Shown: piece by piece, positions 2,773 to 62,434 of the stretch
Numbering within the stretch: the stretch's first letter is position 1
How the letters are laid out: every line of letters begins with the position of its first letter
Assembly: GCF_018977255.1 (NCBI RefSeq)
Contig: NW_024704742.1
Location: 9,922,001-9,986,000 of the forward strand
DNA: 64,000 bases
Reading direction: 5' to 3'
Origin: Callorhinchus milii
Taxonomy: Eukaryota
Made by a program: the position numbers and the translations under genes
The notes under the pieces: generated by a model
Told to the model about the DNA's origin: nothing
What the model saw: the letters and a program-made list of their open reading frames with translations, nothing else
Databases searched by the model: none

Positions 2773-4563
2773 GTGGATCCATTACAGGCAGAGACAGGAG
2801 GAATTATAATGGGGGCTAATGATTTGGCAGTCATTAAACAAATACTTTGCTTCTGTTTCCACGTTAGAAGACACTGAAAACTTATCAAAAATAGAGGGGA
2901 ACCAAGAAGCTAATGTTAGTGAGCAACTAAGGGAAATTCCATCAGTAAACAATTAATACTAGGGAGACTGTTGGGATTGAAAAATGACAAATCCCTTGGA
3001 CCTGATGGCCTGCACCTTAGGGTTTTAAAAGAGGTGGGGGCTGAGATAGTGGATGCCTTGTTTTTGATCTTCCAAAATTCTCTGGATTCAGGAACGGTTC
3101 CCACTGATTGGAAGATCGCCAATATGTAACACCACTATTTAAGAAGGGTGGGAGAGAGAAGATGGGGAACTATAGACCAGTCAGTCTGACATCGGTGGTA
3201 GGGAAAATTCTAGAATCCTTAATTAGGGATGTTGTAGTGGGATACTTAGAGGACCATAACATGATTAGGCAGTCAACATGGCTTTACAAAAGGGAAGTCA
3301 TGCTTAACAAATCTTTTAGAGTTTTTTTGAGGATGTAACTAGCAGATTAAATAAGGGGAACCAGTGGATATGGTATATTTAGATTTTCAGAAGGCATTCG
3401 ACAAGGTGCCACATAAAAGGCTGCTACACAAGATTAGGGCACATGGAATTAAAGGCAATATATTAGCATGGATCAAAGAGCGGCTAACGGGAAGAAAACA
3501 GAGAGTAGGGATAAAAGGGGCCTGGCAAGATGTGACTAGTGGAGTGCCACAAGAATCAGTACTTGGGCCTAAACTATTTACCTTCTATTTCAATGATCTA
3601 GACGAGGACATAGAACTTAAAATATTTAAGTTCGCGGTTGATACTAAGCTAGGTGGGAGAGTAAGCTCTGAGGATGACACAAAAAGATCGCAAAGGGATA
3701 TAGATAGGGTGGGTGAGTGGGCAAGAGGTGGCAGATGGAATATAATGTGGGGAAATGTGAAGTTATTCACCTAGGTAGTAAAAACAGAAAAGCAGATTAT
3801 TTTCTAGAAAAGGAGAGATGAGACAGTATTAGTGTTCAGAGAGATTTGGGTGTCCTTGTACACCAGTCACAAATGTTAGTATGCAGGTACAACATGCAAC
3901 TAGGAAGGCTAATGGCAATGTGGGCGTTTATTGCAAAAGGGTTAAGAATACAAGAGTAGGGAAGTCTTGCTGCAACTGTATGGGGCCTTGTTGAGACCCC
4001 ACCTAGAATACTGTGTGCAGTTTTGGTCTCCTTATTTAAGAAAGGACATACTCGCCTTAGAGGGGGTGCAGCATAGATTCCGTAGGTTAGTTTCTGGGAT
4101 GAGGGGTTTGACCTATGAGGATAGATTGAGTAAACTAGGTCTATATTCTAAATAGAATATAGAAGAATTAGGAGTGATCTTATAGATTCCTATAAGATTC
4201 TTATGGGGCTTGGCAGAGTAGAGAGTGTGAGACTTTCTCCTGGTAGGAGAACCTATAACTAGGGGTCGTAGTTTTAAGATTAAGGGTCAGCCCTTTCGAA
4301 CAGAGTTGAGGAAACACTTCTTCACTCAGAGGGAAGTGAATTTATGGAATTCTCTACCCCAGAAGGCTGTAGATGCTCAGTCCTTGAACATATTCAAGAC
4401 TGAGATTGATAGATTTCTAAAGGATAGAGGGATTAAGGGATAATGGGGATAAGGCAGGTAGATGGAGTTAGGTTAGAAGATCAGCCATGATCTTATTGAA
4501 TGGTGAGGCAGGCTCGAGGGGCCGAATGGCATAATCCTGCTCCTAATTCCTATGTTCCTATGT
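2773..4563 (+). mobile_element. CR1 LINE, 5'-truncated, frameshifted ORF2 (RT) plus 3' UTR
   Basis: RT motifs NYRPVSLTSVVGK, YLDFQKAFDKVPH, SGVPQESVLGP, RPHLEYCVQFWSP. The 3' end is GGCCGAATGG...CCTGCTCCT...(TTCCTATG)n. Confidence 0.95.
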
Positions 4564-6340: not shown

Positions 6341-6690
6341 AATAATAATAATCCTTGCATTTAATAGAGCATCTTATCACGTCTTTGTGATGTCTCAAAG
6401 CACTTCACAGAATATACTTTAAGTGAAATGACTGTATATTTTGTGGGCAGAACACGGCAGCCAATTGCGCACAGCAGTGTCCCACAAAAAGTCGTGGATT
6501 GAAGTGGTCAATTTTTTTTAAGGAATTAAAAGCGATCCACGAATCAACTAACAACCAGGTTCCTACTTACTGCTAGGTAAACAGAGGCGTGTGGAGTAAG
6601 GAAACTTGCCCAATGTTCTGTTCTGCCAGGAATCGAACCCAGTAATCTCACTTGCGAGGCGAATGCTCTAACCACTGAGCTACAGGACAC
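6341..6690 (-). mobile_element. tRNA-derived SINE, dominant family
   Basis: Reverse complement with A/B boxes and tail. Confidence 0.9.
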
Positions 6691-21840: not shown

Positions 21841-22679
21841 AAAAAAAATCAGCCCGGATTCTCGCTCCCAATCACTACTGCACAGTTTCCTATATATGGG
21901 GGGTGTCTGCCAGCATGGGGCACGGTACCCCAGCGCGAGGCAACGCCTTTAAGAGAGGAGAGGAAGGAGAGAGAGCAATTCCTCCAGGACTGAGGGCAAA
22001 GAGAAATACTGTATCTTCAGTCCTGTAACAACAACAACTTGCACTTATATAGCACTGCTCACACACGGTAGCGTCTCAGAGCGCTTATCTTCTGTACTGT
22101 ATGTCTGGGGGAGCGGGGTGGGAGAAAGGAGTTACAACAGTGCCCCCCCCCCATATATATGAGGGTATGACACTGAGCCCTGGGAATGGGCAAAGGAATT
22201 CCACAAATTTACACTCGCACCACTTTGAGGAGTTAGGAACCAGACAGCAGAAAGGCTGCAGGAATGGGAGGGAATTGACAACAACAACTTGCATTTACAT
22301 AGCGCCCTTCACGCCGGACGGCGTCTCGGAGCACTTTACTGTCCAGCAAGAGGACAGAAATCAAAACATATATATATTTTATATATATATATAAATATAT
22401 ATATTTTATATATATAACTAGTCAAACTGCAGAAATTGTTTAAGAATTGTTTAAGAAAATTGTTTAAGAAAGGCCACGTTAGACAGTGAGTGGTGGGGGG
22501 ATCACTAAATACTTTACTCAGTTGCACTTTGTGAGCTGCGGCCGTCTGATGTGAAACTCCAGGAGAGGGGGAGAGGGAGAGGGGGAGAGGGCTCAGTGTC
22601 CGGCTGCACCGTGTGGCACTGCTGAAATCACACAGCGAGAGAGCGCGCTTCAAACCAAAGGTCTGCTCGGCACCAGGCC

Positions 22680-23752
22680 ACACAAACACAGCACAAACAC
22701 AGCACAGCACAGCACAGCAAACACAGCACAGCACAAACACAGCACAGCACAAACACAGCACAGCACAAACACAGCACAACACAAACACAGCACAGCACAA
22801 ACACAGCACAAACGCAGCACAGCAAACACAGCACAGCACAGCACAAACACAGCACAGCACAAACACAGCACAGCACAAACACAGCACAAACACAGCACAG
22901 CACAAACACAGCACAACACAGCACAGCACAAACACAGCACAACACAGCACAGCACAAACACAGCACAGCACAAACACAGCACAAACACAGCACAGCACAA
23001 CACAGCACAGCACAACACAGCACAGCACAGCACAACACAGCACAGCACAGCAAACACAGCACAGCACAACACAGCACAGCAAACACAGCACAAACACAGC
23101 ACAGCAAACACAGCACAAACACAGCACAGCAAACACAGCACAAACACAGCACAGCAAACACAGCACAAACACAGCACAGCACAACACAGCACAGCAAACA
23201 CAGCACAAACACAGCACAGCACAAACACAGCACAGCAAACACAGCACAAACACAGCACAGCACAACACAGCACAGCAAACACAGCACAAACACAGCACAG
23301 CACAACACAGCACAGCAAACACAGCACAAACACAGCACAGCTACAGCACAAACACAGCACAGCACAACACAGCACAGCACAAACACAGCACAAACACAGC
23401 ACAGCACAAACACAGCACAGCAAACACAGCACAAACACAGCACAGCACAACACAGCACAGCAAACACAGCACAAACACAGCACAGCAAACACAGCACAAA
23501 CACAGCACAGCACAACACAGCACAGCAAACACAGCACAAACACAGCACAGCACAAACACAGCACAGCAAACACAGCACAAACACAGCACAGCACAACACA
23601 GCACAGCAAACACAGCACAAACACAGCACAGCAAACACAGCACAAACACAGCACAACACAACACAGCACAGCAAACACAGCACAAACACAGCACAGCACA
23701 AACACAGCGCAACACAAACACAACACAGCACAACACAACACAGCACAGCCAC
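22680..23752. repeat. ~1.07 kb complex microsatellite of CACAG / CACAA / CACAAA units
   Basis: Directly visible; almost T-free on the + strand. Confidence 0.97.
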
Positions 23753-23921
23753 AGCGCTCCGGTAAACTTCACAACCATAAGTGAAAGCCCAAATCCCTGA
23801 GTGCGCTCCGTCTGAGCCACATCCCCCGATGGGAAAGGGCGCAGTTTAACTGCCGTTTGTGGAGGGAGTGAAGTCCTCACAACAACCTCGGAACTGACCC
23901 CCACTGCAGCACAATGTGAGA

Positions 23922-24110
23922 CCCCCCACACCCCCACACCCCCCCCACACCCCCACATTCCCCCCCTCTCCCCCCCACACCCCTCTCCCCCCACACCCCC
24001 TCTCCCCCCCACACCCCCCCTCTCCCCCCCACCCCCCCCACACCCCCCCTCTCCCCCCACCCCCCTTCTCCCCCCCACACCCCACACTCCCCCCACACCC
24101 CCTTCTCTCC
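23922..24110. repeat. C-rich low-complexity repeat
   Basis: CCCCCACACCCCC/CTCT units. Confidence 0.9.
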
Positions 24111-24231
24111 TCTATTTCTATAACACACACTTTCAGTCCCAATTGCATTAAAGAACAGGTATTACCTTCAATGTGGAATCACAATCCATAACGGCCAAAA
24201 AGTGAACTGTTCACAACTCAAGTCGCTGCCC

Positions 24232-24731
24232 GAACCCCCGGACCCCCCCCCCCGCCCAGACCCCGGCCCCCGCCCCGGACCCCCCCCCGCCCAGACCCCG
24301 CCCCGACCCCCCCCCGACCCCCCCCCGCCCCCGCCCAGACCCCGCCCCGAGCCCGGACCCCGCCCAGACCCCGCCCGAGCCCGGACCCCGCCCGACCCCC
24401 CCCGCCCAGACCCCGCCCCGACCCCCCCCGCCCAGACCCCGCCCCGACCCCCCCCGCCCAGACCCCGCCCCGACCCCCCCCCGCCCAGACCCCGCCCCGA
24501 CCCCCCCCCCGCCCAGACCCCGCCCCGACCCCCCCCCGCCCAGACCCCGCCCCGACCCCCCCCCGCCCAGACCCCGCCCCGAGCCCGGACCCCCCCCCCG
24601 CCCAGACCCCGCCCCGAGCCCCGGACCCCCCCCCCGCCCAGGACCCCCCCCCCGCCCAGACCCGCCCCCGCCCAGACCCCGCCCAGACCCCGCCCCGAGC
24701 CCCGGACCCCCCCCCGCCCAGACCCCGAGCC
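24232..24731. repeat. CpG-rich minisatellite, ~25 bp unit CCCAGACCCCGCCCCGACCCCCCCG
   Basis: Directly visible tandem units with variable poly-C length. Confidence 0.93.
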
Positions 24732-24837
24732 GCTGTGCTCTGTGTCCTCAGCCGCTCGGCATTAGCTGTGGAGGCCTTTCCCACAAACCCCTGTGACGGT
24801 GACACTCCCCATTGCTCTGTCAGCCTCGTGTCTCCTC

Positions 24838-26327
24838 CACACCTGTCCCAGTCCTGCACCCCCCCCCTCACTCCCCCCCACCTGCCCCAGTCCTGCACCC
24901 CCCCTCAGCCCCCCCCCCCACCCCCCTCACTCCCCCCAACTCACCCCCCCTCTCACCCCCCCCACTGCCCAGTCCTGCCCCCCCTCCCCACCCCCCCCTC
25001 ACCCCCCCACCCCCCCCTCACTCCCCCCACCCCCCCCTCACCCCCCCACCCTCCCAAACCTGTCCCAGTCCTGCACCCCCCCCCCACACCCTCACTCCCC
25101 CCACACCCCCCACTGCCCCCCCTCACTCACCCCCCTCACTCCCCACACCCCCCCCTCACTCCCCCACACCCCCCCTCACTCCCCCACACCCACCCACCCC
25201 CCCCCTCACCCACCCCCCTCACTCCCCCTCACTCCCCCCACCCCCCCTCCCAAACCTGTCCCAGTCCTGCACCCCCCCCACAACTCCCCCCCCCCCAACA
25301 CCCCCCCACCCCCTCACTCCCCCCACCCCTCACTCCCCCCCCCCTCACTCCCCCCACCCCCCCCCTCCCAAACCTGTCCCAGTCCTGCCCCCCCCCCAAC
25401 TCACCCCCCCCCACACCCCCCACCACCCCCTCTCACCCCCCCCCTCCCAAACCTGTCCCAGTCCTGCCCCCCCCCCCCTCACACCCCACCCTCCCAAACC
25501 TGTCCCAGTCCTGCCCCCCCTCACTCCCCCCCACCCCCCCCACCCCCCTCACTCCCCCCCTCCCCCCCAACCCCCCTCACTCCCCCCCACCCCCCCTCCC
25601 AAACCTGTCCCAGTCCTGCACCCCCCCCCACCCCCCCACCTGTCCCAGTCCTGCACCCCCCCTCTCACCCCCCCACCTGCCCCAGTCCTGCACCCCCCAC
25701 CCCCTCTCACTCCCCCCCCCCACTGCCCCAGTCCTGCACCCCCCCCCACACCCCCCACTGCCCCAGTCCTGCACCCCCCCCACCCCCACCACCTGCCCCA
25801 GTCCTGCACCCCCCACCTGCCCCAGTCCTGCACCCCCTCCCACCCCCTCTCACTCCCCCCACCACCTGCCCCAGTCCTGCACCCCCCCCCCCCACCACCT
25901 GCCCAGTCCTGCACCCCCACCCCACCCCCCCTCTCACTCCCCCCACACCCCTCTCACGCCCCACCCCACCTGCCCCAGTCCTGCACCCCCCCTCTCACTC
26001 CCCCCCTCATTCTCACTTACCCACTCGCTCCCCACTCCCCCCCCCTCACTCCCCCCTCCTCCACCCCCCCTCACACCCCCCCCTCATTCTCACTCCCCCC
26101 TCCTCCACCCCCCCTCACACCCCCCCTCATTCTCACTCCCCCCCTCACTCCCCCCTCCTCCACCCCCCTCACACCCCCCCCTCATTCTCACTCCCCCTCA
26201 CTCACTCCCCCTCCTCCACCCCCCCTCACACACCCCCCTCATTCTCACTCCCCCTCACTCCCCCCCCCTCACTCCCCCCCCCTCACTCTCCCCCCCCTCA
26301 TTCTCACTCCCCCCCTCACTCCCCCCC
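24838..26327. repeat. C-rich complex tandem repeat with recurring CCTG(T/C)CCCAGTCCTGCACCCC and CCCTCACTCCCC / CCTCATTCTCACT motifs
   Basis: Directly visible. Confidence 0.93.
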
Positions 26328-26329
26328 TG

Positions 26330-26640
26330 GTTTGCTGCTCAGTGACCGCCTCCTGACACGGCTCTAACTTTCACACTGGATATTTGACGTAACTTTTTAC
26401 ACATTTCACTTTGACATTTTGTGACGTCAAATATGAAGCCTCTCCACGTGGCCCCGTGAGGGGTAACCGTGTAACCGCCGGGCACAGCGGCGGCGGGCAG
26501 CAAGCCCCCGGCCCGGCCCAGCCCGCGGATAGGGGGCGGCGGCGATTTGGAGGAAAACTCGCGGCCAAATAAATTCTGATGTATAAAGTGGGACGGCATC
26601 GCTGAAATGTATGACTTGGTGCCCGCAGTTAGTTTCCTTT
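26330..26640. promoter_or_regulatory. CpG-rich promoter/enhancer-like segment, possibly an alternative PSD promoter
   Basis: High CpG density; TGACGTAA at 26385, CRE TGACGTCA at 26422, E-box CACGTG at 26445, GC-box-like GGGGGCGG near 26531. Confidence 0.5.
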
Positions 26641-37136: not shown

Positions 37137-38242
37137 ATTATTCCTCATTGACAGTGTTGGGAGTAATTATGCCACTGGGTCAGAAGCTCACAAGGACCTG
37201 AGCCTGAATCACTTTTTCTCTTTATTTGCTGATCACTCTGCTTTTTCATCTGATGTTCTCTCTTGGCTGCAGGCTGTTGGCTCACACGTCTCAAGCTGCA
37301 CCATTCCCAGGATGTCTTTTCTTCTGCCTCTTACTGGATTTGTTTCCATTTTTTGTGTGTGTTGGTAAATTTCCTCCAATTGGAAAATATAAGACACTGG
37401 ATGAAAGACTCCACTTTGCTTTGAAATAGCACCTTTATGTTTACCTGAATCACAAGGCAGACATTTATATACCAAATTATTCAGGGGATTTAATAATAAT
37501 AATCCCTACATTTGATATAATGCTTAATCACATCTACGAGACGTCTCAAAGTGTTTCACAAATTACAGAATGTAAAGTGAATTGACTGTATGTTTTGTGG
37601 GTGACATGTTCCAGCCGGGTTTCTATTTACTGCTAGGTAAACAGAGGCATGCAGAGTAAGGAAACTTGGCCAACTTTTCGACCTGCTGAGAATCGAACCC
37701 AGGTCTCTCGCTTCTAAGGCAACTGCTCTAACCACTGAGCTACAGGTTCTCTAATCCTCGCCATTTGATATAGCGCCTTCCCCATCAGGAGAATATCTCA
37801 AAGCGCTTCACGGAATTTAATGTAAAAATGTAGAGAATGTGTTTCTCGTAGGCAAACCCTGAAGCCAATTTGCACGTATTGTTTCACAGAAAATCATGAA
37901 GTTGAATGAGCAATTTTATCTGGTTATTGCAGGCCAGGACGCAGGGAGTAACTCCCTCTTTTCGAGTAGCGTCATTTAACATCCACCTGAATAGGCCAAC
38001 AATAAGAGTTTTTTTTTAAAGAGACAAGAGAAGGGATGCAGAGAGCTGGGAGTAATTATAGATTGGACTAAAATCTGATGTGTAAATTTGCTGGAATGAC
38101 ATTTACTGAAAACAGGACAGAAGTTTCCAACCAGGATTTGAGGATACTGACCAAGGCAATTTGTTATTGAGAGAACTGCTTGAAGCACCCAGGAAGCTGA
38201 ACTCCACACAGATTGCAGTTCTTCCTGTGACAGTTCAGGAGC

Positions 38243-39729: not shown

Positions 39730-40195
39730 CTTGCTCCATTCCCCATCCCCCAGAGGATCGATTTCAAGATCCTCATCCTCACCTACAAGGCCATTCACGG
39801 CCTCGCTCCCTCCTACCTCTCCGACCTACTATCCCCCTACCTACCTGCCCGTACCCTCCGTTCCTCTGGCTCCGGTCTGCTCCACATCCCCCGCCCCAAC
39901 CACCCTACCATCGGTGGCCGGGCCTTCAGCCTCTCAGCCCCGAGGCTCTGGAACTCCATCCCCCAGTGCCTTCGCCGCCTCCTCCCTTTCCTCCTTCAAG
40001 GCCGGTCTCAAGACCTTTCTCTTTGACCGAGCCTTCAGCTCCCCTCTCGACTCTCTACCCCCTCCTCGCTCCCTCCCTTCCCTCCCCTCACCCTGACCAT
40101 TTCCCCCCTGCTCGGGTCCTGACCCAACTGTACAGCGCCTTGGGACGTCCTCCCGACGTGAAAGCGCTCTATAAATGGAATCTTGTTGTTGTTGT
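39730..40195 (+). mobile_element. L2 3' fragment
   Basis: Encodes PIPQRIDFKILILTYKAIHGLAPSYLSDLL...GGRAFSLSAPRLWNSIP; (GTT)n tail. Confidence 0.92.
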
Positions 40196-40436
40196 AAAAC
40201 CTTTTTTTTCCCCCCATCTGCTGTCCTAAAGATGCTTTATTGTACTTCTGAGGTGCATTTCCACAGGCACCCAGCAGCTCAATCTCACCCTCACACACAG
40301 CCGTCAGGATGATGATGACAATAATAATAATCCTTGAAAAATGCAAAATACGGCAGATACTGGAAATCTGAAACAAAAAGAGAAGTCACTGGGAACACTC
40401 AGCAGGTCAGGCAGCATCTAAGGAGAAAGGAAAGTG

Positions 40437-40473
40437 AGTCAACGTTTCAGGTCCATGAACCTTCATCAGAACT
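40437..40473 (-). ncRNA. Minimal type I hammerhead ribozyme motif (Penelope-type)
   Basis: Minus strand reads AGUU CUGAUGA AGGU-UCAUGG-ACCU GAAA CGUU GACU: conserved core, 4-bp helix II, loopless palindromic helix III, 4-bp helix I. Confidence 0.65.
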
Positions 40474-40653
40474 GGGACATGTTGGGAGGAAAGGCTTTTA
40501 AGGACTAACAGAGAGGGGGGAGACAGGGCAAGGAAGACAAAGGAGAAAATGCCTACCTTGAAGAAGTTTTGCTCTTGTCTCACCATTTTCTCTTTTGTCT
40601 TTCTTGCCCTGCCTCCCACCCTCTGTTAGTCCTTAACTCTCCCAACGTGTCCT

Positions 40654-40690
40654 AGGTCTGACGAAGGTTTGTGGACCCGAAACGTTGACT
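40654..40690 (+). ncRNA. Degenerate hammerhead ribozyme motif (second arm)
   Basis: AGGU CUGACGA AGGU-UUGUGG-ACCC GAAA CGUU GACU, with mismatches in helices I and II. Confidence 0.45.
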
Positions 40691-40834
40691 CACTTTCCTT
40701 TCTCCATAGATGCTGCCTGACTTACTGAAAGTTCCCAGCAACTTCTGTTTTGTTCATAATAATCCTCACATTTGATATAGTGCCTTATCACGTTTTCAAA
40801 ACATCTCAAAGCACTTCACAGAATATACCGTAAA

Positions 40835-43330
40835 CAACAACAACAAAATTACATTTATAGAGCGCCTTTCACGTCGGGAGGATGTCCCAAAGCGCTGAGC
40901 AGTCAGGTGTCGGGGCCCGAGCATGGGGGAGGGGTGGGGTAGGGGTGAGCGAAGGCAGAGAGGTGGGAGGGCGACCAAAGGCACAGTCGAAAAGAAGTGT
41001 CTTGAGACCGGCCTTGAAGGAGGCAAGGGAGGAAGCGAGACTCTCTTCCCCCTCCTCGCTCCCTCCCTTCCCTCCCCTCACCCTGACCATTTCCTCCAAT
41101 GCTCGGGTCCTGACCCAACTGTGCAGCGCCGTGGGACGTCCTCCTGACGTGAAAGGCGCTTTATAAATGGAATCTTGTTGTTGTTGTTGAGGCGAAGGGA
41201 CCGTGCGATGGAGTTCCAGAGTGTGGGGGCAGAGAGGCTGAAAGCCCGGCCACCGATGATAGGGCGGGGACATGGAGCAGGCCAGAGCCCGCTGAATGGA
41301 GGGAGCAGGTAAGTTGGTAGGGAGTCAGCAGATCAGAGAAGTAGGAGGAGGCAAGGTCATAGATGGCCTTGAAAGTGACGATAAGGATCTTGAACTCGAT
41401 CCTCTGGGGGATGGGGAGCCAGTGGAGTTGGGCGAGGGTGGGAGTGATGGGGTCACGGAGTCTGGTGCGTGAGAGTACATGAGCTGCAGAGTTTTGGATG
41501 ATCTGCAGCTTGTGAAAGGAAGTGTTAGGAAGGCCAATGAGGAGGGAGTTCCCGTAATCGAGCCTTGATGTGATGAATGCGTGGGTGAGGTTTCGGCAGC
41601 CTGAGGGGTGAGGCAGTGTTGCGGAGTCTGGCAATGTTGCGGAGGTGGTGGTAGGCAGTGCCGGTCATGGCGCAGATGTGGGGGAGAAAGGACAGTTCAG
41701 GGTCAAACAAGATACCCAGGCTCCTGACTGGCCTCAATGAGGTTGAGTGTGCGGCCGTGGAGGCTGATGCTACCAGCGCCTGAGGTGCGGAAATACTGGC
41801 ACGAGCCAATCAAGAGGACCTCGGTCTTGCTGACATTGAGTTGGAGAAAGTTGTCCCTCGTCCAGGACTTGATGTCGGTCAGGACGCAGTAGTCCTGGAG
41901 TTGAGGGTGCAGGCAGAGAGATAGAGTTGGGTGTCATCCACATACATGTGGAAATTTACCCCATGTCTGTGGACGACGTCACCAAAGGGGAGCATGTAGA
42001 GGGTGAAGAGTAGGAGACCGAGGACAGAGCCCTGAGCAATGCCGCACGAGACAAAGCGGGGGCTGGAAGAGAAGCCATTTGCTATGACGAAATGGAGGCG
42101 GTGTGAAAGGTAGGACTTGAACCAGTCAAGGACAGAATCTTGAAGGTTGAGGTGGGAGGAGATGCGGTGGAGGAGGATTGAGTGATCCAGTGTCAAAGGC
42201 AGCGGAGAGATCGAGGAGGACGAGGAGGCAGAGGGACCTTGGTCACACATGGTCAGGATGTTGTTTGTGACCTTGACCAGAGCAATTTCCGTGCTGTGGG
42301 CAGCATGGAAACCCAATTGGAGGGGTTCATGGAGGGAATGGGAGGAGAGGAAAGAGTGAAGCTGGGAGGCAACGGCTCTCTCAAGGACTTTGTATAGGAA
42401 AGGGAGATTTGAGATGGGCCGGTAGCTAGATAGCTGTGATGGGTCGAGTGAAAGTTTCTTCAAGGTTGGGGTGATAGTGGCTGTTTTGTGGGGGTTAGGA
42501 ACAGTGCCAGATGACTGGGAGAGGTTGGTGATGTCAGCGAGTAGTGGGGCAAGGAAGTGGAGCTGGGATTTAAAGGAGAGGGGATGGGGTCCAGGGAGCA
42601 GATAGTAGGCTTCATGGAGAATATGGTGGTGAAGACAGAGGAGGGGTTGACAGGTTCAAAGGTGTGGAAGGAAGGATTGGTAATTGTCGGATGGGTAATT
42701 GTGTGGGTGGGGGTAGGGAGGGGTTGGATGTTGGGACGGCAGTGGCAACTGAGCGGATTCCCTCGATTTTGGACTTGAGTAAGTCCAGCATTTTTTCGCA
42801 GTGAGAGTCATAGGAAAGAATCTGAGAGGCGTGTCGGGGAGGGCGGAGGAGCCGGTTAGTGGTGGATAACAATAACAACAACAACATATCATTTATAGAG
42901 TACCTTTCACGTCGGGAGGACGTCCCAAGACGCTGGACAGTTGGGTCGGGACCCGAGCAGGGGGGAAATGGTCAGGGTGAGGAGAGGGAGCGAGGAGGGG
43001 GTAGAGAGTTGAGAGAGGAGCTGAAGGCACAGTTGAAGAAAACAGGAGCCTGGGATTGCCTTTCACTTCCAGGTTAACCTGGAATAGAAGGATGATTTGG
43101 CTGAGGCGAGAGCAAAGCAGTAGTTCTTGATGAGGTCCAGCCAGAAGTGGAGGTGGAACGTTAGGCCGGATTTGAGCCAAGTGCACCCGGCAGCCCGCAC
43201 CTGGCCCTTAAGCAAGCGAAGGTGGCTGGTGAACCAGGGTGAGGATCGGGAATAGGAGGCAGTTTGGGAGGTGAGGGGGGTAAGGGCATCAAGTGTAGTG
43301 GAGAGGGTGCTGTGGAGGAGGGTAAGTGCA
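40835..43330 (-). mobile_element. L2 LINE, 5'-truncated, degenerate ORF2 (RT), with two nested L2 3' ends (41040-41189 on +, ~42867-43037 on -)
   Basis: SYRPISNLPFLYKVLER, HSTEIALVKV, GIAQGSVLG, FHMYVDDTQLY, AFITSRLDYGNSLL, LHWLPIPQRIEFK; GTAAA flanking duplication. Confidence 0.95.
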
Positions 43331-46389: not shown

Positions 46390-46656
46390 TCCCTCCCACT
46401 ATGTGTAAAGCTGTAACAGGTAAACAGATTGCAAGGATCACCTAAAGGATCAAGTTTAAGGATTAGCGTCTCCCTGGACAAGTATTAGCCCTCTGTTTGC
46501 AGACGCACAAAGCAACCAAAGCGATCCATGGCATCAGTTTAATATAAAGTGGCTTCTTTGCGTTTCATGATAACGGTCATTTCCAACAGCGATTTGAAGG
46601 CACTGACCAAGGCAATTAATTCCTTAACACTCCTAAGCTACGAGGAAGAAAGACTA

Positions 46657-47151
<495 letters not shown>

Positions 47152-61842: not shown

Positions 61843-62201
61843 TTAATAATAATCCTTGCATTTGATATAGCGCCTTATCACATCTTCGTGCTGTCTCAAA
61901 GCGCTTCACAGAATATACTGTAAAGTGAATTGACTGTATATTTTGTGGGCGAAATGCGACAGCCAATTGTGCACAGCAGTGTCCCACAAACAGTTGTGGA
62001 TTGAAGTGATCAATTTTTTTTTTGAAGGGATTATTACCCCCGGAAAAGCAATCCGCCAATCGCCTAACAACTCGGTTCCTACTTACTGCTAGGTAAACAG
62101 AGGTGTGGAGTAGGGAAATTTGTCCAACATTTCGCCCTGCCGGGAGTCAAACCCAGGTCTCTCGCTTGCGAGGCGAGTGCTCTAACCACTGAGCTACAGG
62201 A
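61843..62201 (-). mobile_element. tRNA-derived SINE, full length
   Basis: Reverse complement of the family sequence. Confidence 0.9.
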
Positions 62202-62434
62202 TTAACAATGCTAATCTTACCTAATTGTTTGCAGCGTGGAATACAACCCAACCTGCTTATGAGGTGCTGGTCTGGGGTCCATAAATTCCGACCACGGATT
62301 TTCTAACAGCATTAAAAAAAAAGCTGCCAGTCAGAGCTTCCGGGTTGTCAGGTCACCTCTGACATCACGTCCTATGCAAAAAAGCATCAATGGCATTTCC
62401 TGCACACACACACATTCACAGTGACGTCCATAAC

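Follow-up and report, generated by a model that had tools for sequence, protein, structure and literature searches.

Endonuclease-bearing Penelope-like elements (PLEs) are defined by a reverse transcriptase (RT) followed by a C-terminal GIY-YIG endonuclease (PMC4209133, and PMC8557442 in the sections used here). In canonical families such as Penelope/Poseidon and Neptune, according to the same sections of the latter work (Craig et al., 2021, PMC8557442), copies are heavily truncated at their 5' ends, carry a hammerhead motif near the 3' end and show a preference for microsatellite-like targets. The same sections describe an inverted 5'-truncated copy beside PLE insertions, on their 5' side, and a tail of 30-40 bp that is often present at one end only. 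For a lizard PLE studied in vitro, the parts of the report drawn on here attribute the tail to two adjacent internal RT start sites, and show that the protein acts on both strands of the target, cleaving and extending each (PMC11167929).

The hammerheads of metazoan PLEs are minimal (min-HHRs), with a type-I layout and CUGANGA and GAAA cores (Cervera and de la Pena, 2014, PMC4209133). A single base is left unpaired between positions 9 and 10.1, G10.1 pairs with C11.1, helix I has 4 bp, and in place of a looped helix III there is an ACGU palindrome without a loop, so that helix III can form in a dimer only. Pairs of such motifs lie on opposite strands of PLE repeats, 100-700 bp apart, and cleavage is weak, requiring a dimer or an engineered helix III (PMC4209133). 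Non-LTR retrozymes, as presented in the portions of two reports used here (PMC7229834; bioRxiv 10.64898/2026.07.22.740005), are also short non-coding units with type-I hammerheads and are related to PLE termini; they are tandem same-strand repeats, thought to give circular RNAs.

We followed up a foldback with a hammerhead motif on each strand, noticed in a 64-kb stretch of Callorhinchus milii DNA (hereafter the window, meaning the whole stretch analysed). The observation is real, and the main reading of the initial annotation, that the foldback derives from a Penelope element, is correct: it is an ordinary old PLE insertion unit of the kind already published. The family to which it belongs shares with canonical PLEs every feature listed above for them, as far as the cited sections describe these. 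At the locus itself, both members of the unit consist of ~180-215 nt of the untranslated tail of the element, with no coding part, which sets it apart from a canonical PLE.

The unit is 421 bp long (positions 40335-40755) and has an exact 11-bp direct repeat on each side; its features are collected in Table 1. The two inverted arms of ~175 bp, the 32-nt spacer and the 11-bp flanking repeats described in the initial annotation were all found again, at or near the same places. Over the aligned part of a pairwise alignment, the mean column identity of the two arms is 84%, and the 37 outermost bases of the left arm have no partner in the right arm. Both strands of the unit fold into one long hairpin, at -271.3 kcal/mol for the plus strand (z -23) and -270.8 kcal/mol for the minus strand (z -28), and for neither strand did any of 100 shuffles fold as well. 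Matches of the foldback to Rfam miRNA precursors were generic and far below the gathering scores, and we set them aside as the signal that any long hairpin would give.

Table 1. Features of the foldback and its host gene, in positions of the window.
Feature	Position	Strand	Remarks
Left target-site duplication, ATAATAATCCT	40324-40334	.	Exact direct repeat (family D7); within the (AAT)n tail of a tRNA-derived SINE
Left-arm tail, outermost ~34-37 nt of the PLE 3' end	40335-40371	-	Unpaired in the right arm
Left arm, 5'-truncated copy of the PLE 3'UTR	40335-40552	-	Host-gene sense; 90-93% identity to many genomic copies; positions 430-646 of the 647-nt ruler copy L031:7604-8250
Left-arm minimal type-I hammerhead	40437-40473	-	Predicted cut after 40441
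Junction filler between the two 5' ends	40553-40577	.	Origin uncertain; no genome match
Right arm, tail-less 5'-truncated copy of the PLE 3'UTR	40578-40755	+	Ruler positions 424-608; best genome matches 84-86%
Right-arm hammerhead motif	40658-40686	+	Predicted cut after 40686
Inverted-repeat block I1	40376-40488 / 40639-40751		113 nt, 87% complementary
Inverted-repeat block I8	40498-40519 / 40615-40636
Inverted-repeat block I6	40515-40551 / 40584-40620		32 nt separate the arms
Right target-site duplication, ATAATAATCCT	40756-40766	.	Same direct-repeat family (D7), exact
3' end of a tRNA-derived SINE, the insertion target	40756-40830	-	By-eye match to SINE ends ...gtgaagcgctttgag...atatcaaatg.aaggattattat
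Host exon	46654-47151	-	99-100% identity to C. milii "PH and SEC7 domain-containing protein" proteins

The foldback lies in an intron of the PSD gene, since minus-strand PSD exons flank it on both sides: the host exon of Table 1 and a Sec7 exon, also on the minus strand, 6.5 kb below the start of the window. The left-arm motif, on the minus strand, is in the sense orientation of this gene. Both the intronic position and the gene-sense orientation of the motif at 40437-40473 had been proposed beforehand, and the flanking exons support them.

Other repeats surround the foldback. Direct repeats (40049-40195 and 41039-41187, 89-97%), which are other interspersed repeats, lie around it, and inverted repeats (39900-40059 and 40954-41267) enclose it, the nesting spanning 39900-40200 and 40830-41270. 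An open frame on the minus strand 1.1 kb from the foldback (41879-42655) contains the RT-like words ...FHMYVDDTQLY, and another on the plus strand (3355-3774) contains the RT-like words YLDFQKAFDKVPH...; both are probably LINE remnants. The window also has a long block of low-complexity or tandem-repeat sequence (22300-26400) with frames of up to 717 aa, of proline-rich or CCAVLC type, in several frames and on both strands.

Searching the ~991.5-Mb C. milii assembly with the whole unit gave 5300 first-look candidates, 40 of which were scored. Most of these 40 matches cover the left arm alone, tail included, at 90-93% identity. The candidate counts of our two genome searches (5300 and 6756, in a genome of ~1 Gb) are first-look numbers and not copy numbers. 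When family copies are viewed with their flanks, the homology extends upstream by varying lengths and does not form 215-bp units, as is expected for 5'-truncated copies of a retroelement. Past ~650 nt the common sequence is coding (it reads ...VVYCIRCSRCGLLYIGETKRRLGD...), with a stop ~390 nt from the 3' end, and in copies L055-L060 the hammerhead-bearing 3'UTR runs upstream into the open reading frame. Because other copies of the arms run upstream into an RT/GIY-YIG frame, the arms are the last ~180-215 nt of a PLE 3'UTR of ~390 nt.

Several comparisons bear on the nature of this frame. In BLASTP it matches the GIY-YIG domain of a second C. milii PLE family (E 1e-12), which scores above the Pfam GIY-YIG cut-off, and it is 54-65% identical to predicted ray and shark proteins (15 proteins, E <= 0.001). 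Three of these 15 cartilaginous-fish homologues were scanned, and all three have an RVT_1 match, a C-terminal GIY-YIG match or both; the RVT_1 matches (E 2e-6 and 9e-5) are below the cut-off, while GIY-YIG in one homologue reaches 23.2 bits against a cut-off of 22.6. When the fish homologues were used in tblastn, single copies (L058 and L059) showed the RT and endonuclease parts followed by the 3'UTR with the hammerhead. Just upstream of the GIY-YIG part, the family frame has a C-x4-C-x2-C motif (CQRRRCNTC), which fits the CX2-5CxxC linker mentioned for Neptune in the sections of Craig et al. used here (PMC8557442). In the decayed family fragments of C. milii itself, Pfam gave a GIY-YIG match below the cut-off (E 0.037) and no match to RVT_1. 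The family has an RT followed by a C-terminal GIY-YIG endonuclease, and the suggested Penelope origin is borne out by longer family copies that continue into the RT-GIY-YIG reading frame.

A whole-genome Pfam search for GIY-YIG (assembly G000) returned only two loci, L029 (1579-2981, minus strand) and L030 (1456-2900, minus strand), which represent the second, unrelated Penelope-like family. In the ~1.5 kb downstream of these two loci there were no hammerhead words and no similarity to the PLE family of the foldback.

The unit does not fit the description of a non-LTR retrozyme. The motifs of the window lie on opposite strands, unlike those of the tandem same-strand retrozyme repeats, and the family forms the 3' terminus of an element that encodes protein.

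The window foldback was then compared with other head-to-head pairs of the family, giving 13 examined pairs in total (the window pair, L002, L003, L014, L027, L028, L036, L039, L046, L048, L050, L051 and L052). In all 13, the truncated 5' ends face each other, and one member, never both, extends to the outer 3' terminus (ruler position of at least 641), its partner ending at 606-620. A direct repeat of 7-13 bp was found at the outer borders of 11 pairs and was not found in the other two of the 13. The 3' ends of the family are bimodal; among the 40 scored copies, 19 end at the outer site, 17 at an inner site ~33 nt further in and 4 elsewhere. An inverted partner was listed nearby in 8 of the 40 scored loci. 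The foldback is the usual insertion form of PLEs, two 5'-truncated copies placed head to head with a ~35-nt tail at one end.

Two other loci, C31 and C3, match the whole foldback at ~80%. This is the kind of match that a foldback or MITE-like element would leave if the entire 421-bp hairpin transposed as a mobile unit, and the initial annotation had raised a search for such a mobile family. However, the flanks of the two loci are unrelated, each locus is bordered by short direct repeats of its own, and the 5' truncation points and junctions differ too. The spacer of the window foldback matches nothing else in the genome (query positions 1-30 unmatched). The arms, moreover, are no more than the terminal 3' part of a longer element that encodes protein. 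What the whole-foldback search revealed was a recurrent form of PLE insertion, with two full foldbacks in unrelated surroundings, and we rejected the mobile family; transposition of the hairpin as a unit strikes us as extremely improbable.

The target of the window insertion is the (AAT)n end of a tRNA-derived SINE, and by eye, copies in L003, L009 and L018 likewise border on AAT-rich sites or SINE tails. Across the 64 kb there are 16 tRNA-like matches (e.g. 62132-62203, 6618-6689 and 37679-37749), all of them heads of a single tRNA-derived SINE family. Its members terminate in ...atatcaaatgcaaggattattattatt, and it is in the (AAT)n tail that the foldback and several other PLE copies sit. Some likeness between the arms and the body of the tRNA-derived SINE (29-nt matches, E 0.02-0.27) was judged to be due to chance.

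We consider it probable, at roughly 0.8, that the unit arose in one old integration of an endonuclease-bearing PLE, which left two very short head-to-head copies of its 3' end and duplicated 11 bp of the target. The relative divergence of the two arms counts against this. Compared over 181 columns with the majority sequence of 50 other copies, the left arm differs in 11 and the right arm in 29, nine of them gap columns, although two cDNAs of one RNA should be equally old. The right arm is thus about twice as diverged, and its best genome matches (84-86%) are lower than those of the left arm (90-93%), as would be expected had there been two separate insertions, an older one leaving the tail-less right arm and a later one placing the younger left arm directly beside it in the opposite orientation. 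PLEs do tend to insert into or beside earlier copies, according to the portion of a review cited here (PMC6765202). However, a single exact 11-bp duplication surrounds both arms and there is none around the left arm alone, while outer repeats in 11/13 pairs and the one-tail rule in 13/13 pairs also argue against independent insertions. The two arms further share two changes that are absent from all 50 other copies, a one-base deletion and a G>U at hammerhead position 10.3. Two separate insertions are therefore unlikely in our view, and the initial proposal that the unit was inserted as one event holds, with the duplication bracketing both arms.

One event can produce inverted segments in other retroelements too. 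In LINE-1 twin priming, a single event yields two inverted truncated cDNA segments within a single target-site duplication. The window unit resembles this in having two inverted truncated segments and one target-site duplication. In twin priming, however, the inversion is within one copy, whereas the window unit consists of two opposed copies of one 3' end, only one of which has the PLE-specific tail at its 3' terminus.

A single PLE integration could have proceeded as follows. The element would have inserted into the (AAT)n tail of the SINE inside the PSD intron, where both nicked target strands would prime reverse transcription of the element RNA, one from each internal start site; this step is extrapolated from the in-vitro work on the lizard element (PMC11167929), which is a different element from the C. 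milii family. The left copy would start at the outer 3' end of the element and so carry the ~35-nt tail, and the right copy would start at the inner 3' end and lack it. The two short cDNAs would then be linked 5' end to 5' end, with some filler bases in between, and the 11-bp stagger would give rise to the target duplication. With each copy came the min-HHR of the family, ~106 nt from the 3' end, and both copies have since decayed. Tentatively, the one-tail rule may be a genomic footprint of PLE integration itself, in which each nicked strand primes its own cDNA from a different start site on the RNA; we see this as possible without counting it the likelier case. The strictness of the rule is the single detail that may add to the published picture.

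The majority motif of the family (CCCAGUU-CUGAYGA-A-GGGUC-RUG-GACCC-GAAAC-GUU-GACUCAC) is, judged by its sequence, a textbook minimal type-I hammerhead. Its core is complete, its predicted helices I and II measure 4 bp and 5 bp, a single unpaired base precedes helix II, and helix III has no loop; it agrees with the min-HHRs of metazoan PLEs in its type-I layout, its CUGANGA and GAAA cores, its G10.1-C11.1 pair (in the C. milii majority) and its ACGU palindrome (PMC4209133). Helix II, with 5 bp and a 3-nt loop, is shorter than the 7-8 bp of the Schistosoma families (PMC4209133). The majority base is canonical at every core position, and the whole core is kept in 16 of 53 copies. Ten of these 16, including the right arm of the window, have at least 4/5 helix II pairs together with G10.1-C11.1, a pair that is the family majority (37/53 copies). 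The motif is wholly intact in 8 of the 53.

Helix II covariation among genomic copies, put forward initially as a check on the motif, did not materialise in support of the helices, although this is a low-power test. Among the 53 copies, all from a single young family that offers little power, helix I had no compensatory cell and helix II had one, and changes at helix positions were one-sided or pair-breaking. Nor is the motif better kept than its surroundings, with a mean majority frequency of 0.911 in motif columns and 0.933 in the flanks. The lack of covariation and the decay of the motif are as expected for neutrally decaying copies, and say little about the master element.

A few copies have ends near the predicted cleavage site. 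The inverted partners at L036:936 and L039:312 start at TGACTCAC, 1 nt before the predicted cut, and at L020:~435 a partial copy upstream on the same strand ends at GAAAC-TT, joined to a truncated copy. L020 is also the only locus at which a same-strand partial copy was seen upstream, the kind of partial tandem arrangement that forms the pseudo-LTRs of PLEs. In a genome-wide pattern count, however, homology starts at the predicted cut in 20 copies compared with 25, 27 and 1 at three control places, showing no enrichment; conservation of the anchors is slightly higher at the control places (24-27 of 50 copies) than at the test place (21 of 50). Several of the 20 cut-site starts resemble internal deletions. 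On these counts, we rejected an excess of 5' ends at the hammerhead cut.

Within the window, the pattern CTGANGA-N(8-24)-GAAACGTT has two matches, at 40469..40441 on the minus strand and at 40658-40686 on the plus strand, against a chance expectation of 0.00 and no match in any of 100 shuffles. The arms had been described as each containing CTGA(T/C)GA, a hairpin and a terminal word, and both indeed contain CUGANGA, a hairpin and GAAACGUU. The left-arm motif comprises helix I AGUU/GACU, CUGAUGA, a bulged A, helix II GGUUC-AUG-GACCU and GAAAC-GUU, and the right-arm motif comprises CUGACGA, A, GGUUU-GUG-GACCC and GAAAC-GUU. The full invariant core (C3 U4 G5 A6 N7 G8 A9 ... G12 A13 A14 A15.1 ... 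U16.1 H17) is kept in both arms, as are the unpaired A before helix II and the ACGU palindrome. The GAAAC-GUU arrangement, with no helix III loop and the palindrome only, is that of the min-HHR of Cervera and de la Pena (PMC4209133), in agreement with the initial view of a minimal hammerhead that needs a dimer.

The helices of the window copies have fared less well than their cores. In both arms helix II is interrupted by a U·C mismatch at 10.3-11.3, a difference from the published min-HHRs (PMC4209133); positions 10.1-11.1 are G·U in the left arm and G-C in the right, and helix I of the right arm has 3/4 pairs left. Neither arm has both helix I and helix II intact. The hammerhead fold has an energy of -3.5 kcal/mol in the left arm and -0.4 kcal/mol in the right, compared with about -8.8 kcal/mol for intact family copies, and the minimum-energy folds of the two window copies do not contain it.

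The covariance-model search envisaged in the initial annotation gave no support, with no Rfam match even on intact family copies. Specifically, the Rfam hammerhead models had no match at the gathering score in the window, none at E <= 10 on positions 40250-40850, and none at E <= 10 on the intact-motif loci L020, L022 and L040. Rfam hammerhead models expect a helix III, which is the likely reason for the missing matches.

We also considered how the unit would behave in the PSD pre-mRNA. Transcription of the gene runs towards lower coordinates, so the antisense copy of the motif, in the right arm, is made before the sense motif. The sense motif of the left arm would pair with this antisense copy as it emerges, making self-cleavage of the pre-mRNA unlikely. 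In the predicted fold, the sense-strand motif lies in the 3' arm of the hairpin and is fully paired, in keeping with the earlier suggestion that the hairpin masks the ribozyme. The same annotation allowed for co-transcriptional cleavage; it is conceivable but less likely than was stated, the complementary arm being transcribed first.

The unit is predicted to form an imperfect duplex of ~175 bp in the pre-mRNA. A duplex of this length is long enough to be a plausible ADAR or Dicer substrate. Sequences from four runs were inspected at the locus, but the contigs are mostly paralogous repeat copies and none spans the whole stretch. One 178-nt contig, from run X1 (its RNA nature guessed, depth 2.8), crosses the locus-specific spacer and has C for T at 40627 and 40634. 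Each change corresponds to A>G on the sense strand of the gene, while run X10 has the reference base at both positions. These changes could be editing, an allele or an error, and are a lead and not evidence.

Such observations would suit an exapted unit, an active ribozyme or regulatory hairpin of the PSD pre-mRNA whose self-cleavage, ADAR editing or small RNAs matter to the gene. Every invariant core base is kept in the sense-strand motif, the hairpin has a length that suits ADAR or Dicer, and the one low-depth contig, from a run only guessed to be RNA, has A>G at two places. However, both arms have a damaged helix II and no longer favour the hammerhead fold, a monomer lacks helix III, and the motif pairs with its complement, which is transcribed before it. 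Copies of the family also decay equally fast inside and outside the motif (0.911 vs 0.933). PLE min-HHRs cleave poorly in vitro even as dimers (PMC4209133), and insertion of the lizard PLE in vitro needed no cleavage, with no reads ending at the site, according to the parts of that report drawn on here (PMC11167929). We regard exaptation as very improbable, and the unit is most likely without function for the PSD gene.

For the PSD gene, the insertion probably has no consequence, as it is the decayed remnant of a retroelement, and what it contributes to the intron is a long, imperfectly double-stranded stretch. For the study of PLEs it is a clean example, with every hallmark of their insertion in 421 bp: the target duplication, inverted truncated copies, the one-sided tail and a min-HHR in each copy. 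The abundance of this family would also allow PLE 3' termini and head-to-head units to be counted properly in a vertebrate that evolves slowly. If the one-tail model is true, it would join the two in-vitro observations made on the lizard element, the two start sites and the extension of both strands, and would explain why PLE insertions often become hairpin-forming loci in introns.
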